A stretch of DNA of 63,960 nucleotides, filler included, from Ionaspis alba (taxonomy: Eukaryota): assembly GCA_964255285.1 (NCBI GenBank). It is 5 parts of 5 records of this genome, joined end to end, with 100 filler letters (N's around TTAATTAATTAA, not from the genome) between each part and the next. Parts side by side here need not be neighbours in the genome. Positions count along the whole stretch, not along the records: positions 52,846 to 63,960 come from CAXUUL010000567.1; 4 more parts are not named here. One strand, given 5' to 3'. A program made the translations under genes and the position numbers. Below, piece after piece: positions 6,458 to 63,845 of the stretch; the stretch's first letter is position 1; each line of letters begins with the position of its first letter. The notes under the pieces were generated by a model. That model was given only the letters and a program-made list of their open reading frames with translations, did no database searches and was not told the DNA's origin.

Positions 6458-9253
6458 ATGACTCGTTCCCCAACTATTCAGACCACGCCTCCGCCTACTC
6501 CGCCCTCACCTTCAGCGTCCTTCTATGATCTAAGCGACGATGAAGAAGGCGAATATAACACGATAATGCACAGCAGTTCCGGTAAAGGTGTGAAGCTACT
6601 ATTCTCGAAGAGCAAGGTAAGGATACCTGCGACGCAAAGCTAGAGACCATGCTTATAACCGATAGGTCTACGTGCACCCTACACCTTCTTCGAAAGACAA
6701 CATACCAGGCTTCATTGCGCTCATACAGCAGAAACCCACGGGCACCGATCCCGATCAACGCCCGACATCCTCATCTTCTTCCAAAAGTGTCAAAGCAACC
6801 TCTTTCCTTCTCTCATGGGTACCCGAATCGTCTCTTGGTGACGCTTACGATGCATACGCCAAGGTTGACCTCTCGGAAGCCTCTTCGCCTCCTAAACAAA
6901 CCCCACTCGTTCCTCAGCCCCCTACCACTACGACTCACGGCAGCTCCATTGGAACATATGCCTTCGCAGTGCCTGTTAGCGAGATATACTCCCTCTTAGT
7001 CAGACCACCCAGTCTGGGATGGTGGTTCGGAAGCGTAGTGATTAATACCCGGTCCGGGGACAGTTTCCCTGCTCTGTTCTTCCACGACAGTGAATGCCAG
7101 TCTACTATTTTGCAGAAGAAGCGCATGGTCAGGGAGACCTTTGATCCATTTGGCGAGGGTGGAGGTACATTTTGGGGTGGTGACGAGGTCTTAAGATGGC
7201 TGAAGAGATATGTTAAGGTGGAAAGGTCAGGGGTTGATCCTTCGGTATACCTGATCGAGCCAACAGCAGAGGATAAGCTTGGGTTCAGCAGCAATCCGTC
7301 ATCGCCAACTGGTGTAGGGCTACCTGGTACTGGAAACAGAGCAGCAGGCCAAGTCGGAATTGCAGGCCCAAGCACCACGTCGGCCTCAGGAGGCATAGAC
7401 GGCGCCATGGATCCATTCACAAAGGCTTTGAAACAAGCTCGGTGGAATTTTTTGGAGAAAATGAGTCAAGTAACAACATTCACAAGAAAGACCGCTCAAG
7501 AAATTGTCGAAAATCCAAAGCTCCCTCCGCAGGTTCGGAGGCTGATGAAAAACCCCGAGGTCCAGACCTTGCAGGACGAATTTGACAGCGCGAGAGTGTA
7601 TCTTGCAAGATGGGCTATGGGTATGGCGGAGCAGAGTGAAAGAGAGAGGAACCAAAGAATCTGGACGGCTCGTGATGTGCTAGAAATGGAGGAAAGCGAT
7701 GTTGGAGAATTTGAGATCCTTGACGCTGGAAGCTTGACATTGAGTGACAAGAGGAAACCTGTCACCTTGAAGGAGTGGAACGGCTTCTTTGATGCTCATA
7801 CTGGGCGACTTCAGGTTACTGCGGATGAGGTCAAAGAACGGGTCTTCCATGGCGGACTTGACCCGAACGACGGCGTGAGAAAGGAAGCCTGGCTTTTCCT
7901 GCTTGGAGTGTACGAGTGGGACAGCACAGCTGATGAACGAAAAGCTATGCTTAACAGTAAAAGAGACGAATTCGTTCGGCTGAAGGGTGCTTGGTGGGAG
8001 CGGATGGTCGATGGTACAGGTACAGCAGCAGACAACGAGTGGTGGAAAGAGCAGAAGGGTAGGATAGGTAGATCATCCTCGGACCTCCTACTGTAAAATT
8101 GGATCAGAAAGGCTAACTCAACCCATTGCTTGGGGTACGACATATAGAAAAAGACGTCCACCGCACCGATCGTCACATCCCTCTTTTCGAGGGCGAAGAC
8201 ATCCCACATCCCGATCCCGACTCGCCGTTCGCAGAGGTTGGCACGAATGTGCATCTCGAGCAGATGAAGGATATGCTGCTGACCTACAACGAGTACAATC
8301 GCGATTTGGGGTATGTCCAAGGAATGAGCGACCTCCTAGCTCCTATATACGCAGTCATGCAAGATGACGCCGTCGCCTTCTGGGGCTTCCAGAAGTTTAT
8401 GGATCGTATGGTAAGTATCCCTTGTCAACCACTACGACCGGTAAACACTAACCTCCATCGCTAGGAACGGAATTTCCTCCGCGACCAATCCGGCATGCGC
8501 GCTCAACTCCTTACACTGGATCACCTCGTCCAGCTCATGGACCCTAAACTCTACATGCACCTCCAATCCGCCGACTCGACCAACTTCTTTTTCTTCTTCC
8601 GCATGCTCCTTGTCTGGTACAAGCGGGAGTTCGAATGGACCGACACCCTACGTCTATGGGAAGCCCTGTGGACCGACTACCTAAGCAGCAGTTTCCACCT
8701 CTTTATCGCGCTCGCAATTCTCGAGAAGCATCGAGACGTCATTATGGAGCACCTAAAGCATTTCGACGAGGTGCTCAAATACGGTACGTCGAACTCTTTC
8801 CCCCTCCCCTGCTTCTTGCCTCTGCCTCTCCCTCTTCAAGACCCTCAGAAGAGTTCAAGCTGATCAACTATAGTCAACGAACTCTCCAACACAATCGACC
8901 TCCCCAGCACCCTCTCCACCGCCGAATCTCTCTTCCGCCGCTTCCAACGTACCGTCGAAGCCGTCGACAAGAAACATAACTTTCCAACCCCCAGCATCCG
9001 TCAGCGCAAAACGGTTGAAAACTCCACAACTCCCACCTCCGAAGCACCCTCATCTTCGACCAGTGCGGCAACCGGCAGTGATGCGAGGAAGGACAGTATC
9101 GGAAAGGCAGTGGCGAAAGGTGTTGGTGCCGAGGCGAAGAAAGACGGGGAAGCGAAGGAGAAGGTTATTAGTCCTGAGTTGAGGATATTGCTTAGTCGGA
9201 AGGTCGTTACGATGGAGAAGGAGGAGGTTGTGGGGCATGGGGGTGGCGTGTAG
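6458..9253 (+). CDS. GYP7: Rab/Ypt GTPase-activating protein Gyp7 (TBC domain); about 5 exons
   Basis: Motifs VKLLFSKSKVYVHPT, FPALFFHD, REAWLFLLG-like KEAWLFLLG, IEKDVHRTDR (Arg finger), YVQGMSDLLAP (Gln finger), FFFRMLLVWYKREF. Introns are GT-AG and the stop TAG is at 9251-9253. Confidence 0.93.
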
Positions 9254-54489: not shown

Positions 54490-57400
54490 TCACTCTATAG
54501 ACAACTCCTTCGCATCACAAAACAAATCAATCAGACACCCTGCTGACCAAGCTTGGGTAGGTGACTAAAAACCCCATCAATCAGCACAATCTTCACAACC
54601 AGCACATCACACACATGACAGAAAACACTCACCGAGTCCCCACAAAATTCCCTATTCCGGTTTGTCAATTCGGTCAGCCCCGCCCACGGACTCTCCTGAA
54701 TCGCCTTCTTACACCCTTGCAGCCGGCGCGTAATCTGCTGGAAGGCCTCCACTCTCTCCTCTTGCGTCTTGCGGCGCATGAGATCGAATTTCAGTAACGC
54801 TCTCAGGAAGAATCCTGTAGGCCACAGCCATTCCGGTCCTTGGTGGTAGTTCCTTCCTTTCGAAGTCGCGAAGTCGGTCGAGTCTTCCGAGTTGTTGTAG
54901 TAGGGCCGGTAGTTCAGATCGGTGGGGTCGAGCGTCGCCATCCCTGTGGGACCGCGGAGGACTTTATCGGCGAGCTCGAGAGCGCCGAGGGCGCGCGAGG
55001 GGGTGAAGAGATTGGGGGCCACGGTCATGGCGATGGGGAAGTTGGCGCGGAGTTGATAGTCTTCGTATTCTTTACCGGAGCGGTAGAGGTCTTTGTAGAT
55101 GCCGCGGCGGTTGATGATGCTGGGGTTGACATCGAATTCGGAGTCTTCGGCTGAGTCGAGCGGAACGTAGTAGCAGCGTTCGAAGTTGGTGCGGATCTTG
55201 GAAGCCCAACTGCTAAGGGTCACGGTTTCTCCGGAGCTGGTTTCCACGCTGGAAAATCGGTAGGTGCCTTTCTTGTGGAGATTAGCGAGCCAGGTTAGTG
55301 TGCTGTACGCTAGACCTGTGATTTCGATTGCGGCGCCGTCACGAGGTGTGCCGGGGACGCCTTTGCTTCCGGCTTTTTCGCTCTCGCCCATCTTGTCCAT
55401 CCACGTTCCGCAGTTGTCCTGGCTTCCGCCAAAAATGATACCGGTTTCCCAGTCGACCTTGACGTCAATCTGGAATCCTTCGGACTTCATTTGCATGTCT
55501 AGATTCGGTCCCGCATTGGCTTCGCGGAATGAAAGTCCTGTTGCATGTCGCTGGAGGGCTTCCTGAATGATCTCTTCGATGGTGGAAGACTTGGAATATG
55601 CTCTTGGGTCGTCGAAGTCGAACCACCTATCGTCGTACGGCAGGAAACGCCGAGCGACCTTCTCTTTCAGCATCTCAATACCATTTGGTACCATGTTTGT
55701 GTAGTCCTGAATGCTTTGCAAGAAGAACCAGATCGAGTCTCTTGAGTTATAGCGAGGCAACTTTCCTCCACTCAATAAGTTCGGGATCATGCCATGCTTC
55801 AGAACACTGGCGAAGGCTAGTATGTGCTCTCTTGCATCTTGGTTTCTGCCTGTCCCCAGGAACAGACCTCTCAATGATATGAAAACATCTCGTCCCCAGC
55901 ATCGAGCCCAATCGGTAGAGAAGTGAGGAAGACCTGCGGCTAAGCTGGGTACACTTTTCGTAGGATAGAGAGAAGCAGATTTTGTATATCCAGTCTGTTG
56001 AATGCTGACCATTGCAAGACTATGGATGAACCTTTGACCATGCTTGACGTCGTCACTCATCAAGCCTACTCCTCGACTAAAAGCAGCGTTGTAAGCAGTC
56101 TGAATGACCAAAGCGAAGTATCTTGGTAGCAGAAAGCTTGGGAGCTGTCTTATCGCATAGAATCTTTCAGCAAGCCATTGAACTGGTTTGCGAAGGCAGG
56201 TGTAACCTTCACGCTGGATCAAATGCTCTAAACGACCTGTGATGTAGTCCAACGCCCATTGCCCATCTCTGAGATGATTGCATATCGGATGTCCAAGGTC
56301 ATTGTGGCTGATAACATCACGAAGTATGCTCCACCACCCTTGAAGACCTGAATATACTAACGCACCGTGATTCGGGACAGCATACACCCCGTCCTTGCCG
56401 CCACTGAAATCACGTTCTTCAGCATCGCATCGGTAGAGGACGAAGTTCAGGTCAATGAGGCCAAGTTCACCAAACGCCTCCTGAGATCCACTAGTGACNN
56501 NNNNNNNNNNNNNNNNNNNNNNNNNNNNNNNNNNNNNNNNNNNNNNNNNNNNNNNNNNNNNNNNNNNNNNNNNNNNNNNNNNNNNNNNNNNNNNNNNNCC
56601 TTTCCTCGACTTTGGGTGCACGCGATGTACCGTGACATACTCCCCTTCGTGATGGATATGCGTTTCATCATAGCCGTCTTTGCCCATTAGAACGTGTATT
56701 TGGTTGAGAAGCTTCTTGATGCCACCAATGCCACCTTCTCCTGCGCCAATCTTGACGGTACGATCTGATGATGCCGACGTGTATAGGCGTGTCTCATGTA
56801 CCAAGTCCACTAATTTCGGATAGATCTCATCATAACCCATAACACTACCCGTAGCACATGCGCACATGTTCACAAGAGCAGCATTCGGCAGTGTATCACG
56901 AGCATCTCGCTTCTGTGCTGGGACCTCATTGTCGTGAGTACAGTCCATGAAGAGGGCGTGAACAGGACTTTGTTTGATCCTTCGCACAATCTCCTGTTTT
57001 GGCTTTGGCTCACCCTTGTCTCCGTTAGCTGAGCCATTCTGTAGGACGGCCTTCTCCTCCCCAGACACTTCGTCGACCTCGAAGCTGCCTATCGGTCTTC
57101 CACCATGTCTATGTACCAGTCTACTGAGCTCTTGAGTACTCCATGCCTGCATGGCTTCCCGAATTAGAGCACTGAGTCCTAATCTTTTAACGAAGACATA
57201 GTCCATCTCTTCTGAGCCGGTGAAGAGTTCTGCAAAGACAGCGATATCTGATCTGACTTTCCTTGCCTGGTCCAGAAGATACTCGGCTACAACCAGAGGC
57301 GTGGAATGACAATTATCTATGCGAAACCCAGCAAAGTGTCTGGCCATGAGGCGCGTGTACTTCGTCATGAACTTCCATAAGAAGGGGTTGTCGTTAGGGC

Positions 57401-59054
57401 AAGTACCATAACGCAGCTTAACACAGTCTTGCCATACAATGACTTCTCTTCGTAGATAAGCTCGTGAGTCGGGTCCGGCGTGATCTTTCATCGCATCAGC
57501 TGCCCATATCCAGCCATTGTTGACAAGTGCGAGACTATCCGGGCTGTGAAATTTCGTTGTAGCATTGAGAGGTAGTCTTGTGAAATAAGATTCGATGAGA
57601 GGGCTCTCCGCGGTAATAGGCCCTGCCTTCGGGCCATGATCATCAAGTCGTACGTACTTGACACGGTTAAACACTTGCTCCATAATCTCAGCCACGTCCG
57701 CATCATACTCTTGGTAGAGAGGAACATTCAGTTCGTCCAGGATCTGAGTCATGGTACTCAAAGCAGCGCCTTGAGTGGGAGCCCCTTCATCTTCGGTATC
57801 GTAACGTCCATAGATCACTGTCAGAAGAGCTGCACCAAGCTGAGGGTCAGGATGTCTGTGATATCGTGGACCCATCTGTGACGATCCAACGAAGCCATTG
57901 TCAAGAAGAAAATCTGCTTGTTCTCTCAAAGACCAATCTTTCACACCCTCCAGGCCGCCAACGCCAATTCCACCGAACCCTGATTCGGGTATTGTGATTT
58001 GGGCTTTCGTCCACGATTCAACAGCAGCTTTAGCCCATCTCTCCACTTCAACTACATAGTATTCCCATAGCCTCAAAGGACTGATAACGTGAGATGTGAC
58101 ACCATCCATAACCTGGAGGAGATCATCTACACCGTGCAGAGTCGTCGGTAGTCCGAGTTTCTTGAGATTACCACTATATTCTAGTAGCGCAGTGTCTAGT
58201 TCCAGAGCGGATCGAAGCCAGGGAGCCGTTTCGACATTATAACCAGACTCCGGATGCTCTTCAAGCCATTTGCTGTTATTGGCAGTATGATTCCAAACCA
58301 CGTCCGTCATCCCGAGCAGGCCATGCTCTTTCTCCATGCTTTCTACTAATTTTGCAACATCCTTTTCGCCATTGGGAAAGCAGACCGGGTCGAATTCCAG
58401 CTGATTGAACATGCTGTAGGGCGAATTGGACTCTCCTCTTTGCATCAATGGAGTGAAGTGGACCATGTTATAGCCCCGCTGTCCAATTCCTTTCAAATGC
58501 TTTTCCCAATCATCCGGATACCTTCCCATGAATTTCGACAGTATCGAGAATATAGAAAGAGCATTGAGAGGAAGGGGAGAGTCGCTAAGCGTGAGCCTAG
58601 GAGAGACATCGATGTAATAGGTGAGTGTTTTGGTAGAGGCCGGCTTTAACACAGTCTTCGAGGTCGAGAATTCAGGTAAAGGAGTGTAGGTGGTATGGAA
58701 AGCAAATGCACCCGCCGAGGTGATTGGCACATCAATCTCTATGATGCGATTGAAGTCGGGGTTAAGTCTAGTAGCATGTCAGCCGCGAAGCATTGGACTA
58801 GCGACTGTGTGATCTACGCACTTGTACTCTGTGTATGCGTCTCTCTCAAATTCGTTTCCTGGAGCTGGAATGTTGACCCAGAGGCTCCCTTCACGACATA
58901 TTGAGCTTGTACCTTCGACGGCAAAGCGTACAGAGTATGGAGGATCCGAAGGTGGGGGAAGGTAAATATATCCGCCTGGAACGTCGGGAGCACCTTCGTC
59001 GGTCAATGGAAGAAGGTATACCTCCTGCGAGGTTTGTAACCCTGAAGGTGCCAT
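54490..59054 (-). CDS. GDB1: Glycogen debranching enzyme (4-alpha-glucanotransferase/amylo-1,6-glucosidase); 3 exons, internal gap
   Basis: HFTPLMQRGESNSPYS, DVVWNHTA, GFRIDNCHSTP, AELFTG, MDCTHDN, WGRDVFISLRG, GTWMDKMG, YHQGPEW, final exon SPTQAWSAGCLID. Confidence 0.96.
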
Positions 59055-59616
59055 TTGGGATTACTGCAAGACAAAGCAGTAGGGTTGTAGAGAAAGTAAG
59101 CCTATTTCGAGAACATGAGGGGTTTGTCCATAGAAGCACACTTTTATCCAAGAAGGAAAGAATGGAGCTTCCTGAGCTCCTAAGTTTATAGGTTACAATT
59201 GAAATGAATAGTGGAGGGATGAGACAGCAAAGTGGGCTTTGCGTTGTTGAGGACAGACATTACTGTTGTTGATTTGGAGCGTAGCTCCCCGGTCGTAATA
59301 ATGGCATCTAGCGACTGCGCAAAAAAAGTCAATCGCTGAAATTTAGCTGGCAGACTACAGGGAAGCGGCATTGACCACGTTTTGTGCACGGGCCATGAAA
59401 GTGGGTTGGCTTTGCTGTTCTCGGCCCTCACACTAAAGGATGACCTCTTCGACATTGCTCAAGCCTGAACATGTACACCCTTTTGCTAGGCTCAGACACC
59501 CAGCAAGTAACGTGTCGTGTCTGACGATGATACTTTTGTCTTGAGAAAGACAGAAAACAGCCGTAGCATTGTGCACGTCATGATTGAGGAAATGGTCGAT
59601 CTGGCAATTGTTAAAG

Positions 59617-60706
59617 ATGCCTCCTATTGCCCGTGGCCAGCTCTTCAAGAGCTTGCAAGATTTCAAAAAGGCACTGCACGAATGGGCCCTTGAGACTAAT
59701 TTTACTCCTGCAATCTTAGATAGTGACAGTCGAAGAGTCCGTGTTGGTTGTCGGTATGGACTAGTACATTTCATTTTCTGCTTTATAGCAAAATAGACGC
59801 AGAATTTGTTCTGATACTTCTACAAACAGAGCAAGTCCGGATTGTCAGTTCAAGATCCGTGCCAATTACGATGAGAGTCATGGTTATGCCAAGGTTACCA
59901 GCTGTTTTGATGTCCATGACTGTTCTTCATTTTCCGGCGAACCGGTCTCTCAACGTGTGAAACGGACAGAGGCAACGAAAATGGCCTTTCTTCTCGAGCA
60001 TGTCCCGCAACTCATCGATGTGAACTCAGAAACATCTACCAAAGCTATTATCGAAGCTATAAAGCAAAAGTATGGCCAGGAAATTGCGATTCGTCAAGCT
60101 CAGAAGGTCAAAGCTCGTTTGGTATCGAAACCGAGAAGTCCATGCTCGTCCTGCGGGCAGTTTCACGAGAACAACAATACCTGCTCAACTCGATCAGAAT
60201 CTCGTCAAGATCTAGAAGAGATCCACTCTAACGAGATCAACAATGACATGTCATTACCCGAGGACCACTTAGGAAATGATGTTTCCCACGCTGTGGCTCT
60301 TGTTGAGAGACGGACGATACCTACGTCGATGCCCATAAGCACGTCCTCAGTGGCTACTAGTGCACTAGCTCTGCCTGCTATCTCGAAAGGTTGTGGACAA
60401 GCCCCTGGGGAGCGCTCAGCTCGAAACTCTCAAGGCACTGTCAGAAGGGTTCCCATCTCACAACCCAGCCAACCTTCTTACTCCGCAGCAAGCGTAGGTC
60501 AACCACAACGCACTGGCAACGATGGAAATTCATCAGCAGGGGATCGTCCTCAGCCCTCTGGGAATTCGCAAGCACCGTCGAAGACTCCTCAAGAGGTTCG
60601 AATGGAGGCTGCTAGACTGATGCAAAATGCCGCCAGATTGATGCAGGAGGCAGCAAGACTCAATGCTGAAGCTGCACGTTTGACAGCCTCGGTTGCCAAT
60701 GTCTGA
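59617..60706 (+). CDS. MULE/MuDR-transposase-derived zinc-finger protein (WRKY/GCM1-type domain plus CCHC knuckle, no DDE core), 337 aa, 2 exons
   Basis: Exons 59617-59753 and 59830-60706 give GQLFKSLQDFKKALHEWALETNF..DSDSRRVRVGC|RASPDCQFKIRANY..VHDC (C-x5-C-x23-H-x-C), then KAIIEAIKQKYGQEIAIRQAQKVK, CSSCGQFHENNNTC and a C-terminal (AARL) x4 heptad. Confidence 0.72.
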
Positions 60707-61562
60707 GTGTCGTCCAATGATGAGAGGCTCGTTAGCCTCGTAAAAGATCTTGAACGGTCGATGAAGATGCCTTAGATCTCTGCATGCTCCTGGGATGTCT
60801 TCCAGTGGAGACGCATGTGTTGGGCACACGTATTGATACGTACAAGTTACCTGCGGTCGAACTGCCTATTTCTCTGAAAGAAACTTGCCAAAGGGACTTG
60901 AACAGTCACCCTTGGTGGACATTTACTTGCAACGATGATGCATGAACAAATCTGTCACACCTGGCATACTATGGCCTGTCATGCAGACGCGTCTCATCCT
61001 CGTATCGAGCTAAATGAGATGGACTTTATGCAATTTTCGCAATTTTCCTTGAACAGGGATCGCTGAGCCTCGATGCTGCAGCCGTCCGCCAAATCCTCAC
61101 GGAAGGCAAATTGTCGCATCCGACAGGCCTTGGGAAAAGCAATAATCATACAGTGTCGAAACGATAATGATAAGCTGAAAATATACGTAGGTTGCCTGCA
61201 GGAACTTACTATTGATTGGGCGATCTCGAGGATCGGAATGCAAGCCTGCATGCGCTAAAACGGTGGCTTGTCCCAATCCGCAAACCTACAACTCTCACGG
61301 TGATGCTGCGATACTATATCGAGGCAAGCTTTGGCGTGTTCACACCCTCACGGAGAATTCGTGGGCCTCGTTCAGCTGAAGGCCACCACAAGAAGCATGG
61401 AGTTGGAGGGGCTCAGGCTGAAAAGTGAGGCTCCGCATAAACGACCAGACCATTGGAGACAGAGGCGGGCGGGTACATGAGCACGACGTGCCTCCTGAGT
61501 TTTCAACTTCTGTATTAGAAACTCTAGCCAATTACTTGTCCAAGAAACTATCACTACACGAC

Positions 61563-63845
61563 ATGGGTACTATCGTGCCAACGTCAGTCGGTTGGACCGC
61601 GACTTGCGTCTCGCTTGTTAGCAACCTCACCACCGGCTTCGTGGACGTGAATGGACTGCCTATGGTAAAAAGAGATAACAATACTTGGGGGATAGATATA
61701 ACTACATGCCGCAGCCATTGCAATGCTTCGATCATTCCCCTTGTAAGCGCACTCTTTCGAATTCGAAAATGGCCTCTACTCTGGGCACTATCGGCTCTAG
61801 CGCGTTGTGGTCTCTGTTTTAACAATCGCGAGCGTCCATATTTCTTGAAAACGCTCGATAGATGTGCCGTCCTTTTATTACCACAGTCTTGGCTCGGCTG
61901 CTTCCTTAGCACCTTAGTTTTTATTCAATACTGCTTACTTCTCTCGTCACATTTCTGATCGGCTACTGACCACTTCTAGGATTTCAATTTCCAGAATTTT
62001 GCAACCTCATTCACAAACTATCTCCTACCATGGCTTGCACTTACAGCACAGCTGCCGTACGAAACTGGAAGTCCGTGGAGCAATATCATGAGTCTGTGTA
62101 TGGCCGTGGGAAGTCCTGCATTAATAACCTACTCTTTGTCCCTGACTATCCTTAATCGTTCCTGGGTTCGTCAACAATTCGATTCTCTCTTTTCTCGAGC
62201 ACGAGGTCAGAGTGTGCACCAGAGATTCCCAGGATATGCCGACCGCGTTCGGGCCGCTCAATACTTGCTGCAAGAAGCTCAACAAGTACCAATGAGAGCG
62301 TCGCAGGATAGTGGATGGCTCAGCAGTCTGGTAGTCGTTGGAGATAATCAGAAATGGTGGCAGAGGATGAGAGACAGGCTAAATAACACCCGTCGCGGGG
62401 TTACCTTTTCGCTTACCGCCCAGATTGTCATGGCAGCTATTGCTTGGCTGTTCACCGTGATATCAGCTTTCATAGGCTTCTTAGGTGATATGGTCGTTGC
62501 CCTGCAGATCTCTGCGGGGAGTTTATGGATCTGGATGGTAAGTTTATCAACTCTCAAGAGCCCTCAAAGTGGTGCAATGACCCCCAATTTGAATCGTTTC
62601 GAGCAAATGACAAGCTCACATATCTAAATTGATCATATGCTCAGTCATGAGTCAACACGTTTTATCTGCGGGACGCACACAAACCTAGTCCACTATTCTG
62701 ACATTTTTCAGATACCGGTCATATGTGGTTGGATCACAGTAGGAACTCAGTCACGGCCGGGCTCCATTGCAGAAGTACTTCGTGCAGACAAAGCCCACAG
62801 AGCGCTTGAACCTCCTGTTGGAGTAGCTAGTCGTTACACGGAAAGCGGTGAACAGCGTGCTATCACAGCAAGATCTGGACTCACTCCTGAGCCACATCGT
62901 GTTCATCAGACAGTAGTCGGTGGCTTTCAAGTACCGCCGTTAGCCAACGTGAGGATTCCTTCGTGGTTTGGCTGCGACATTAGTGGCGACGAAAGAAGGC
63001 GCGGCCCTATCTACAATTATTCGAGGGTCTTTACTTGGTGGCAATGCGCGACATCAGTGGATGAGGCTATGGAAGCTACTATGACTAGCATCGAAGCTGG
63101 GGGGACCTGCCAAACGAGACAGCCTTGGGATACAGCCCGCAAAGCCGAGGACAATCTTGCAGGCGACTCCCTCCAGACAGCGAGATATTGTGGACTGACC
63201 ACCAACTCCATACACGCGTACCCAAAATGGTCGGATATCCCTGCTGATGTCTGGAAACGGATGATCACTGCTGCTCTGATGGGCATTTTTGTACAATGGG
63301 GCACGACTGGTCCAGCCATAGTGATCGCTTACACTACACCGGTCCAAGGGTTTGGGTGTCGGTCTGGCGCCTACACACTCTACGGCAGTCTTGGCGTTGC
63401 CGCATGGTTCTTCCTGACAATATCAATGCTTCTGTCCCATGGTGCCATGCTTCGGTATCAAGAAGTCCACGCGAACAACCCGATGATAGACCTTCGCAAG
63501 AATGTCAATGGGCAAAACCAGTACAAAAGGACGTGGCCGCACACTTTCATCTGCGCCGCTGCGGTTGTTACACGATACCTGGGCAAGACGATTGCAGTTT
63601 GCAATGCGATCTGGATTCTTTTAAGCAGCCTCTTCGAGTACATCGGAGGCTTTGACAACTGCTGGTGTAAAGGAGATGTGCTTGGGCTCGGCGATCGGGG
63701 GTGGGTTGTCCTGTACAAGACAGCGGGCGAGCTAGCCCAAGCAGCGCAGACACCTTGGGCTACTGGCGTTGCGACAAGTATTCTTGTCTGCGTATTCTCA
63801 TTTTCGTTCTTTTGGTTGGGATGCAGGAGGACCGGCGAGGACTGA
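61563..63845 (+). CDS. Uncharacterised multi-pass membrane protein; 3 exons
   Basis: Exons 61563-61742, 61980-62537 and 62712-63845 give FTNYLLPWLALTAQLPY, VGSPALITYSLSLTILN, LWIWM|IPVICGW, FVQWGTTGPAIVIAY.TP..GFGCRSG, FDNCWC. Several hydrophobic helices. Confidence 0.8.

Follow-up and report, generated by a model that had tools for sequence, protein, structure and literature searches.

The locus at positions 59617 to 60706 (plus strand) of a 63,960-nt stretch of Ionaspis alba DNA (assembly GCA_964255285.1), the whole of which is called the window here, raises the question of whether an open frame resembling the DNA-binding part of a Mutator-like element (MULE) transposase is a remnant of a transposon or a gene of the host. 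A preliminary description had proposed a host-domesticated, MULE-derived regulator of the WRKY/GCM1 type. We hold with good confidence that the locus is an intact two-exon host gene encoding a domesticated DNA-binding protein that arose from the N-terminal module of a MULE transposase. The protein belongs to a Lecanoromycete subfamily, inside an older Pezizomycotina family, that is descended from this module. It has kept the HxC-type WRKY-GCM1 zinc finger, the N-terminal helix and a three-helix segment, and it is without the DDE catalytic domain, the SWIM zinc finger and the terminal inverted repeats (TIRs) of an element. The domestication part of the proposal was borne out by the profile matches, the structural matches, the synteny, the ratio of nonsynonymous to synonymous substitution (dN/dS) and the lack of TIRs, whereas the regulator function is what we infer.

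Gene structure and domain layout

The exons and the domains of the product are arranged as follows.

59617..59753, plus strand: exon 1, codons 1-45 plus 2 bases of codon 46, encoding the N-terminal helix, the first two zinc-finger strands and ligand C45
59754..59829, plus strand: intron of 76 nt, GT-AG, phase 2, within codon R46
59830..60706, plus strand: exon 2, beginning with the third base of codon 46 and closing with the TGA stop at 60704-60706
59617..59926, plus strand: HxC-type WRKY-GCM1 zinc-finger domain, residues 1-78, split by the intron, with ligands C45, C51, H75 and C77
59954..60130, plus strand: three-helix segment, residues 88-146, homologous to the part of MULE transposases that links the zinc finger to the catalytic domain
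60143..60184, plus strand: CCHC-like zinc knuckle, residues 151-164, C-x2-C-x3-H-x5-C
60185..60583, plus strand: variable Ser/Gln/Pro-rich linker, predicted to be disordered, residues 165-297
60584..60703, plus strand: C-terminal helix, residues 298-337, conserved, which may form a coiled coil or bind a partner

The preliminary description had stated that removal of one GT-AG intron (59754-59829) gives an uninterrupted protein of 337 residues, and this was confirmed when the exons were joined by script and the product was fitted without gaps to its orthologs. The frame opens with an ATG at 59617, the donor GTATGG begins at 59754, the acceptor ACAG ends at 59829, and a CTGAT branch-like motif lies approximately 20 nt upstream of the acceptor. 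With 59617-59753 and 59830-60706 joined, the sequence has 1014 nt and 337 codons with one terminal stop; when the intron was kept, the product stopped after 59 residues. Among 24 alternatives, namely the in-frame, stop-free GT..AG choices within 59700-59900, only 59754-59829 gave a gap-free alignment to 16 distinct intronless orthologous open reading frames (ORFs). All 22 full-length orthologous ORFs in the lichen-metagenome loci L001-L024 were uninterrupted, with 313-369 codons, and the window intron was absent from all metagenome-derived orthologs examined. Additionally, the spliced product aligned in one piece to positions 1-147 of a hidden Markov model (HMM) built from the N-terminal 148 residues of the orthologs and scored 232.7 bits, compared with 76.4 bits for exon 1 alone and 138.7 bits for exon 2 alone. 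The splice model is therefore supported without recourse to RNA, since the product is colinear with the intronless orthologs. The absence of stop-codon decay was likewise upheld: there is a single terminal stop, and none of the 17 distinct coding sequences has a broken frame.

Two side observations concern this gene model. The database models P0004, P0009, P0010, P0014, P0118 and P0121 start at profile position 46 or close to it, where the intron of the window gene lies; in other lineages an intron may lie at the same place, with exon 1 missed by gene callers. Sequencing run X2 (organism B) yielded low-depth contigs that were >99% identical to window positions 59499-60900. Four differences were found, all of them non-coding, with three upstream of the ATG (59537, 59539 and 59597) and one in the intron (59760); there were none in the 518 coding bases covered, while 360 non-coding bases were covered, and the X2 differences are possibly errors at a depth of <5.

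The C-x5-C-x23-H-x-C zinc finger, the helical segment and the C-x2-C-x3-H-x5-C knuckle of the preliminary description could be read directly from the translations. The zinc-finger ligands are C45, C51, H75 and C77, and in an alignment of 45 sequences each of these columns was at least 90% conserved. The knuckle ligands of the window protein are C151, C154, H158 and C164, and the three cysteine columns were also at least 90% conserved in this alignment. Most orthologs have the canonical knuckle spacing C-x2-C-x4-H-x4-C, with the histidine shifted by one in the window and in Xylographa. The knuckle of the window protein had no Pfam match; some orthologs matched zinc-knuckle models near the cut-offs (P0151, 27.5 vs 27; P0115, 26.1 vs 27), and several contained a second canonical knuckle. 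The low-complexity Ser/Gln/Pro tail said to follow the knuckle proved to be only part of the C-terminal region. The term fits the linker (residues 165-297), which is poorly alignable across the family, and does not fit residues 298-337, which form a helix of four heptads, (E/N)AARL(M/N/T)(Q/A), that is nearly invariant across the family and exceeds every other part outside the N-terminal module in conservation.

Profile and structural evidence for the DNA-binding module

Pfam scoring was performed on the separate exon products and not on the spliced window protein. The MULE-type DNA-binding domain DBD_Tnp_Mut (PF03108) was matched by exon 1 alone with 30.7 bits against a cut-off of 25, and by the Xylographa ortholog P0005 with 44.2 bits. 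Exon 2 matched no Pfam family; its best candidate, CCDC85, had an E-value of 0.18, below the cut-off of that family, and was rejected. The FAR1 family (PF03101) had no match in the window exon products. The AFT family (PF08731, cut-off 21.6 bits) was matched by neither of these products, between which the domain is split, while some orthologs passed it, such as P0125 with 26 bits.

An AlphaFold2 model was built for ortholog P0005 with the 45-sequence alignment. The model revealed an N-terminal helix at residues 13-27 with a predicted local distance difference test score (pLDDT) above 90, four strands at 31-36, 40-45, 54-60 and 65-72, and three helices at 97-107, 116-127 and 133-143, also with pLDDT above 90. 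These are followed by the knuckle, a disordered stretch at approximately 165-295 (pLDDT 42-51) and a terminal helix at 298-334 (pLDDT 82-95). A Foldseek search of the PDB with this model found the Aft2-DNA complex (4lmg) as the top match, with an E-value of 7e-5 and a probability of 1.0, followed by AtWRKY18 with an E-value of about 0.08. A search against representative structures, made independently of Foldseek, also placed Aft2 at the top, with a Z-score of 8.9, a root mean square deviation (rmsd) of 2.3 over 75 residues and a sequence identity of only 27%; the next match had a Z-score of 5.5, and WRKY domains had Z-scores of 4.3-4.7. A search of the ESM Atlas gave no usable match. The three-helix segment matched only common helical arrangements with Z-scores of 4.4-5.2 (PriRep1 with dsDNA, 5.2; N-domains of ArgR, 4.9, and AhrC, 4.4), and no fold was assigned to it.

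As evident from the model, the predicted core of the domain is the four-stranded zinc-binding sheet of the WRKY-GCM1 superfamily. The short spacer between the cysteines, the HxC ligands and the N-terminal helix are those of the HxC family, to which the domain belongs. The claim of a MULE-related WRKY/GCM1-type domain thus found a profile match in exon 1 and in P0005 as well as structural matches to Aft2 and WRKY domains, the latter on the ortholog model.

Absence of the transposase core and of element ends

The related proteins P0220 and P0241 carry both PF03108 and the MULE catalytic domain, and they align to the window and to the related loci through their residues 2-136 only. Because core-bearing MULEs match through the first approximately 136 residues only, the finger and the helical segment correspond to the MULE N-terminal module, and in these alignments the homology to MULEs ends where the catalytic domain would begin. 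No DDE catalytic domain (PF10551 MULE or PF00872) was matched in exon 2 at E <=10, and tblastn with P0220, P0241 and P0257 left both the window and 25 related loci without a match to that domain. No SWIM zinc finger was matched in Pfam, and the helical segment and the knuckle lie too close together to accommodate one. The statement that the protein lacks the catalytic core was therefore verified for the window and for the 25 loci, where no remnant of that domain was found.

The preliminary description had also reported no TIRs, and we agree: the region 58700-62000 contains only six inverted pairs of 12-22 nt with 77-93% complementarity, none of which convincingly brackets the gene; the best candidates measure 15-22 nt, with 77-87% complementarity. 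The gene is present in a single copy within the 63,960 nt.

An internal deletion that removed the DDE and SWIM domains and retained a C-terminal knuckle is plausible from sequence comparison. Such a deletion draws its plausibility from the window knuckle region, which weakly matches residues 724-759 of the 762-residue plant MULE P0257 (E 0.2), and from the CCHC finger that the available part of Dupeyron et al. 2019 (PMC6446971) tabulates for Ascomycota Hop subgroups. Searches for longer relatives with residues 1-165 of P0005 or with P0220 returned none or only one plant MULE.

Orthologs and synteny

A search with exon 2 returned 148 homologs at E <=1e-3. Among the 120 matches listed, the 24 with a species name came from 24 different Lecanoromycetes, with one protein each. 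These species span the Ostropomycetidae (Xylographa, Trapelia, Stictis and others) and the Lecanoromycetidae (Lecanora, Sticta, Teloschistaceae and others), as judged from a spot-checked taxonomy. The 25 loci were obtained by a pattern scan of lichen-metagenome contigs, and their neighbouring genes were found by tblastn with the window ORFs; several loci are near-copies from different assemblies, and there are 16 distinct coding sequences besides that of the window. In the window, the gene lies next to the gene for the glycogen debranching enzyme (GDB1), with the following arrangement.

54531-59060, minus strand: GDB1-like ORFs, with Pfam GDE_C at 356.9 bits and hGDE_central at 150.9 bits
59055..59616, no strand assigned: intergenic region of approximately 560 nt, head-to-head with GDB1, a candidate bidirectional promoter

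The syntenic orthologs beside GDB1 that the preliminary description had proposed as a check were found: GDB1 adjoins the homolog in 21 of the 25 loci, as in the window. In the other loci (L001, L009, L020 and L025), the upstream flank is too short to judge the linkage, and every locus with enough flank has the homolog beside GDB1. The two genes are head-to-head and approximately 0.5-0.6 kb apart in 16 loci, like the window, while GDB1 is inverted and 4.6 kb away in five (L002-L006). Conservation of the head-to-head arrangement may have no other cause than a common promoter region that is not easily disrupted. The synteny is confined to the GDB1 side, since the downstream ORF of the window (61980-62627, plus strand) has no counterpart beside the homolog in the 25 loci; this ORF has 215 codons and hydrophobic stretches and matches no Pfam family.

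Some further features of the neighbourhood were observed. The window GDB1 gene contains at least one short intron, near 58779, and a run of N in its coding region; the window as a whole has 1052 N. In L003, GDB1 and the homolog are separated by a gene (6872-8194, minus strand) whose product has an HhH-GPD base-excision-repair domain scoring 28.8 bits. The region 5650-10000 of L003, and likewise L002 and L004-L006, represents a local rearrangement in one lichen-fungus lineage in which the genes are still linked.

Selection

Pairwise dN/dS was estimated by the Nei-Gojobori method (NG86) on the 17 distinct coding sequences, and pairs with a synonymous divergence (dS) of 0.05-2 were kept.

Residues 1-164: median dN/dS 0.069 (range 0.046-0.196), 15 pairs
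Zinc finger: median dN/dS 0.035, 9 pairs
Helical segment: median dN/dS 0.12, 37 pairs
C-terminal helix: median dN/dS 0.11, 25 pairs
Linker: median dN/dS 0.63, 49 pairs
Whole protein: median dN/dS 0.18, 17 pairs

In the family pairs, the structured parts thus have values of 0.035-0.12, far below 1, as anticipated for a host gene in the preliminary description. Orthologs held at a conserved locus under purifying selection are the mark of domestication, and this is what the loci reveal.

The wider family

When 1.84 billion representatives were searched with a profile, 454 proteins had E <=1e-3, of which 184 reached <=1e-10 and 60 reached <=1e-30. The best 150 representatives had at most 595 residues; 97 of them matched PF03108 (E <=1e-4), 4 contained a MULE catalytic domain and 49 matched no family, many of the last being fragments. 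Coreless relatives were found in the Eurotiomycetes (Aspergillus, Emergomyces and Polytolypa), the Leotiomycetes (Blumeria and Stromatinia), the Dothideomycetes (Teratosphaeria) and the Xylobotryomycetes (Cirrosporium). They share the finger and the helices, while their tails differ. In particular, the Dothideomycete type has a canonical CCHC motif directly after the helices, and the other types have different cysteine motifs: the Leotiomycete tail (P0155, P0157, P0163 and P0164; Blumeria and Stromatinia) contains a C-x2-C ... H-x4-H motif, and the Eurotiomycete tail (P0162, P0168, P0171 and P0185; Onygenales and Aspergillus) contains a short 'FKIEF-C-x2-C' motif. The four-heptad C-terminal helix was not seen in the Eurotiomycete, Leotiomycete and Dothideomycete relatives examined. 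This comparison of sequences suggests class-specific tails on one shared DNA-binding module. One Cirrosporium protein has the module fused to the fungal transcription-factor domain PF11951. MULE transposase fragments (P0218, P0220, P0223 and P0241) occupy the same sequence space.

In a quick maximum-likelihood tree, all coreless families fell into one clade of 98 rows with a Shimodaira-Hasegawa-like approximate likelihood ratio (SH-aLRT) support of 97, and none of the 4 core-bearing rows was among them. The spliced window protein was placed within the Lecanoromycete clade (SH-aLRT 97), with a best identity of 64%. The tree hints at one old domestication.

As a side observation, the proteins P0188, P0152, P0243 and P0200 have the module fused to a Fungal_trans_2 (PF11951), SH3, L-rhamnose mutarotase or 3-hydroxyacyl-CoA dehydrogenase domain, and some of these fusions are perhaps gene-model artefacts.

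Function and alternative explanations

It is very improbable that the locus is an ordinary decaying or non-autonomous MULE fragment with a chance open frame. The derivation from a MULE transposase would fit such a fragment; however, the lack of TIRs, the single copy in the window, the position beside GDB1 in 21 of 25 loci, the dN/dS far below 1 and the intact frame in 17 of 17 distinct coding sequences all speak for a host gene. The reading as a transposable-element relic was rejected on the synteny, the constraint and the missing TIRs. A host gene could also act against transposons, as a truncated transposase that would bind the terminal repeats of MULEs and block active transposases or recruit silencing; the KP repressor of the P element reportedly acts as an end-binding truncated transposase. 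The retained module, which residues 2-136 of core-bearing MULEs match, is the part of a MULE expected to recognise the element ends, and the related transposase fragments P0218, P0220, P0223 and P0241 exist in the same sequence space. We nevertheless regard this role as unlikely: the gene sits at one syntenic locus across two Lecanoromycete subclasses under strong constraint, whereas transposon families usually turn over faster, neither the window nor the 25 loci have a MULE element in its vicinity, and in one relative there is a fusion to a fungal transcription-factor domain.

A further explanation places the knuckle or knuckles and the C-terminal helix at the centre of a chromatin, repair, or RNA- or single-strand-binding protein, in which the finger would provide general nucleic-acid affinity. 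The at least 90% conservation of the knuckle cysteines, the second canonical knuckle of several orthologs and the C-terminal helix, which is conserved more than anything else outside the N-terminal module, are in line with this. But the strongest constraint falls on the WRKY-GCM1 finger (dN/dS 0.035), the knuckle spacing is shifted in the window, and the sister families swap the knuckle for other C-terminal motifs while retaining the finger and the helices, which makes a protein of this kind quite unlikely.

The domesticated DNA-binding protein most probably works through the parts that it has kept. As in Aft2 and the WRKY factors, the zinc-finger β-sheet would recognise a specific sequence from the major groove of the DNA, the helical segment and the knuckle would add nucleic-acid contacts, and the C-terminal heptad helix would pair two molecules or recruit a conserved partner. 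The sum of these parts would be a sequence-specific regulator, most likely a transcription factor. To judge from its sequence, the protein is probably a DNA-binding regulator that forms a dimer via the C-terminal helix; for a role as a transcription factor, which is part of our overall reading of a domesticated DNA-binding gene, we would claim a reasonable likelihood.

Several points weigh against this reading. The contigs of both sequencing runs with this stretch (X1 and X2) retain the intron and are in this respect DNA-like. The modelled protein is not that of the window, as P0005 is 46% and 42% identical to the two window exon products. The window knuckle, with its non-canonical spacing and no Pfam match, may be degenerate. 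The dN/dS pairs are non-independent, and for residues 1-164 an estimate was obtained from no more than 35 of the 136 possible pairs. Between the window and the loci, synonymous sites are saturated (dS 1.5-3.6), so that constraint is established for the family and not for the window copy directly; for the latter, the evidence is the intact frame together with the conservation of the ligands. The tree was obtained by a quick search on 147 columns with only 4 core-bearing sequences, and many of its rows are from short contigs in which the full architecture is not visible.

A more far-reaching proposal is that the coreless Lecanoromycete, Eurotiomycete, Leotiomycete, Dothideomycete and Xylobotryomycete proteins stem from one domestication before these classes split and are an old, Pezizomycotina-wide family of regulators with sequence specificity, and that the Lecanoromycete branch gained the coiled-coil helix and became locked head-to-head with GDB1 via a shared, regulated bidirectional promoter tied to the control of carbon storage in the lichen fungus. 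Taken as a whole, we consider this rather unlikely.

Comparison with known systems

Textbook examples of the origin of new regulators include Aft1/Aft2 and FAR1/FHY3, transcription factors derived from transposases. The present gene is a clean and well-constrained example that comes from the lichen-forming fungi, for which functional genetics hardly exists. The coreless proteins of the HxC type that were noted in 2006 turn out to be a broad Pezizomycotina family with class-specific tails; current concepts are unchanged by the locus. No functional study of the Lecanoromycete subfamily or of its coreless relatives was found in the literature covered, which excludes subscription journals. The main text of a 2024 screen for co-opted fungal transposable elements (PMC10799480) contains no Mutator, MuDR or WRKY, and its two mentions of 'MULE' are plant Pack-MULEs.

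Within the WRKY-GCM1 superfamily, the HxC family was defined computationally by Babu et al. 2006 (PMC1702500), the available part of which describes HxC proteins of Coccidioides and Aspergillus with a truncated or lost transposase domain, stand-alone WRKY-GCM1 genes that occur in single copy and are conserved across the filamentous ascomycetes, and, in Ustilago, a fusion with a zinc knuckle. The suggestion that the protein is possibly undescribed in filamentous fungi therefore cannot stand, as coreless HxC proteins appear in that work already. The window protein resembles them in its short first-cysteine spacer, HxC ligands, N-terminal helix, lost core, stand-alone form and conservation between genera, and it is related by sequence to the coreless members of Aspergillus and the Onygenales. 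It differs from the coreless HxC relatives in the Lecanoromycete knuckle or knuckles, the long disordered linker and the nearly invariant four-heptad C-terminal helix. The kind is thus known, while the Lecanoromycete subfamily with its heptad helix and its position beside GDB1 appears to be new and uncharacterised.

Hop-clade MULE transposases of the Ascomycota have a homologous N-terminal finger and helical segment (P0220 and P0241). They also have a DDE domain, terminal repeats of 22-99 bp and multiple copies, whereas the DDE domain and TIRs were not found here. The plant FAR1/FHY3, FRS and MUSTANG proteins are likewise products of host genes that arose from MULE transposases. Of these, FAR1 and FHY3 act as transcription factors that bind DNA, and the plant proteins retain the MULE core and SWIM in an inactive form. 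Unlike the FAR1/FHY3 type, the window protein is without core and SWIM and does not match PF03101.

There is also a likeness to Aft1/Aft2 (Rcs1), the iron-regulon transcription factors of budding yeast, which also have a MULE-derived WRKY-GCM1 domain without a transposase core, and Aft2 provides the closest solved structure, at the low identity given above. There are differences: an iron-sensing role is unsupported for the window protein, whose exon products have no PF08731 match, and in the available part of Babu et al. 2006 (PMC1702500) Aft/Rcs1 are placed with a family whose cysteines are separated by an insert, unlike the HxC type of the window.

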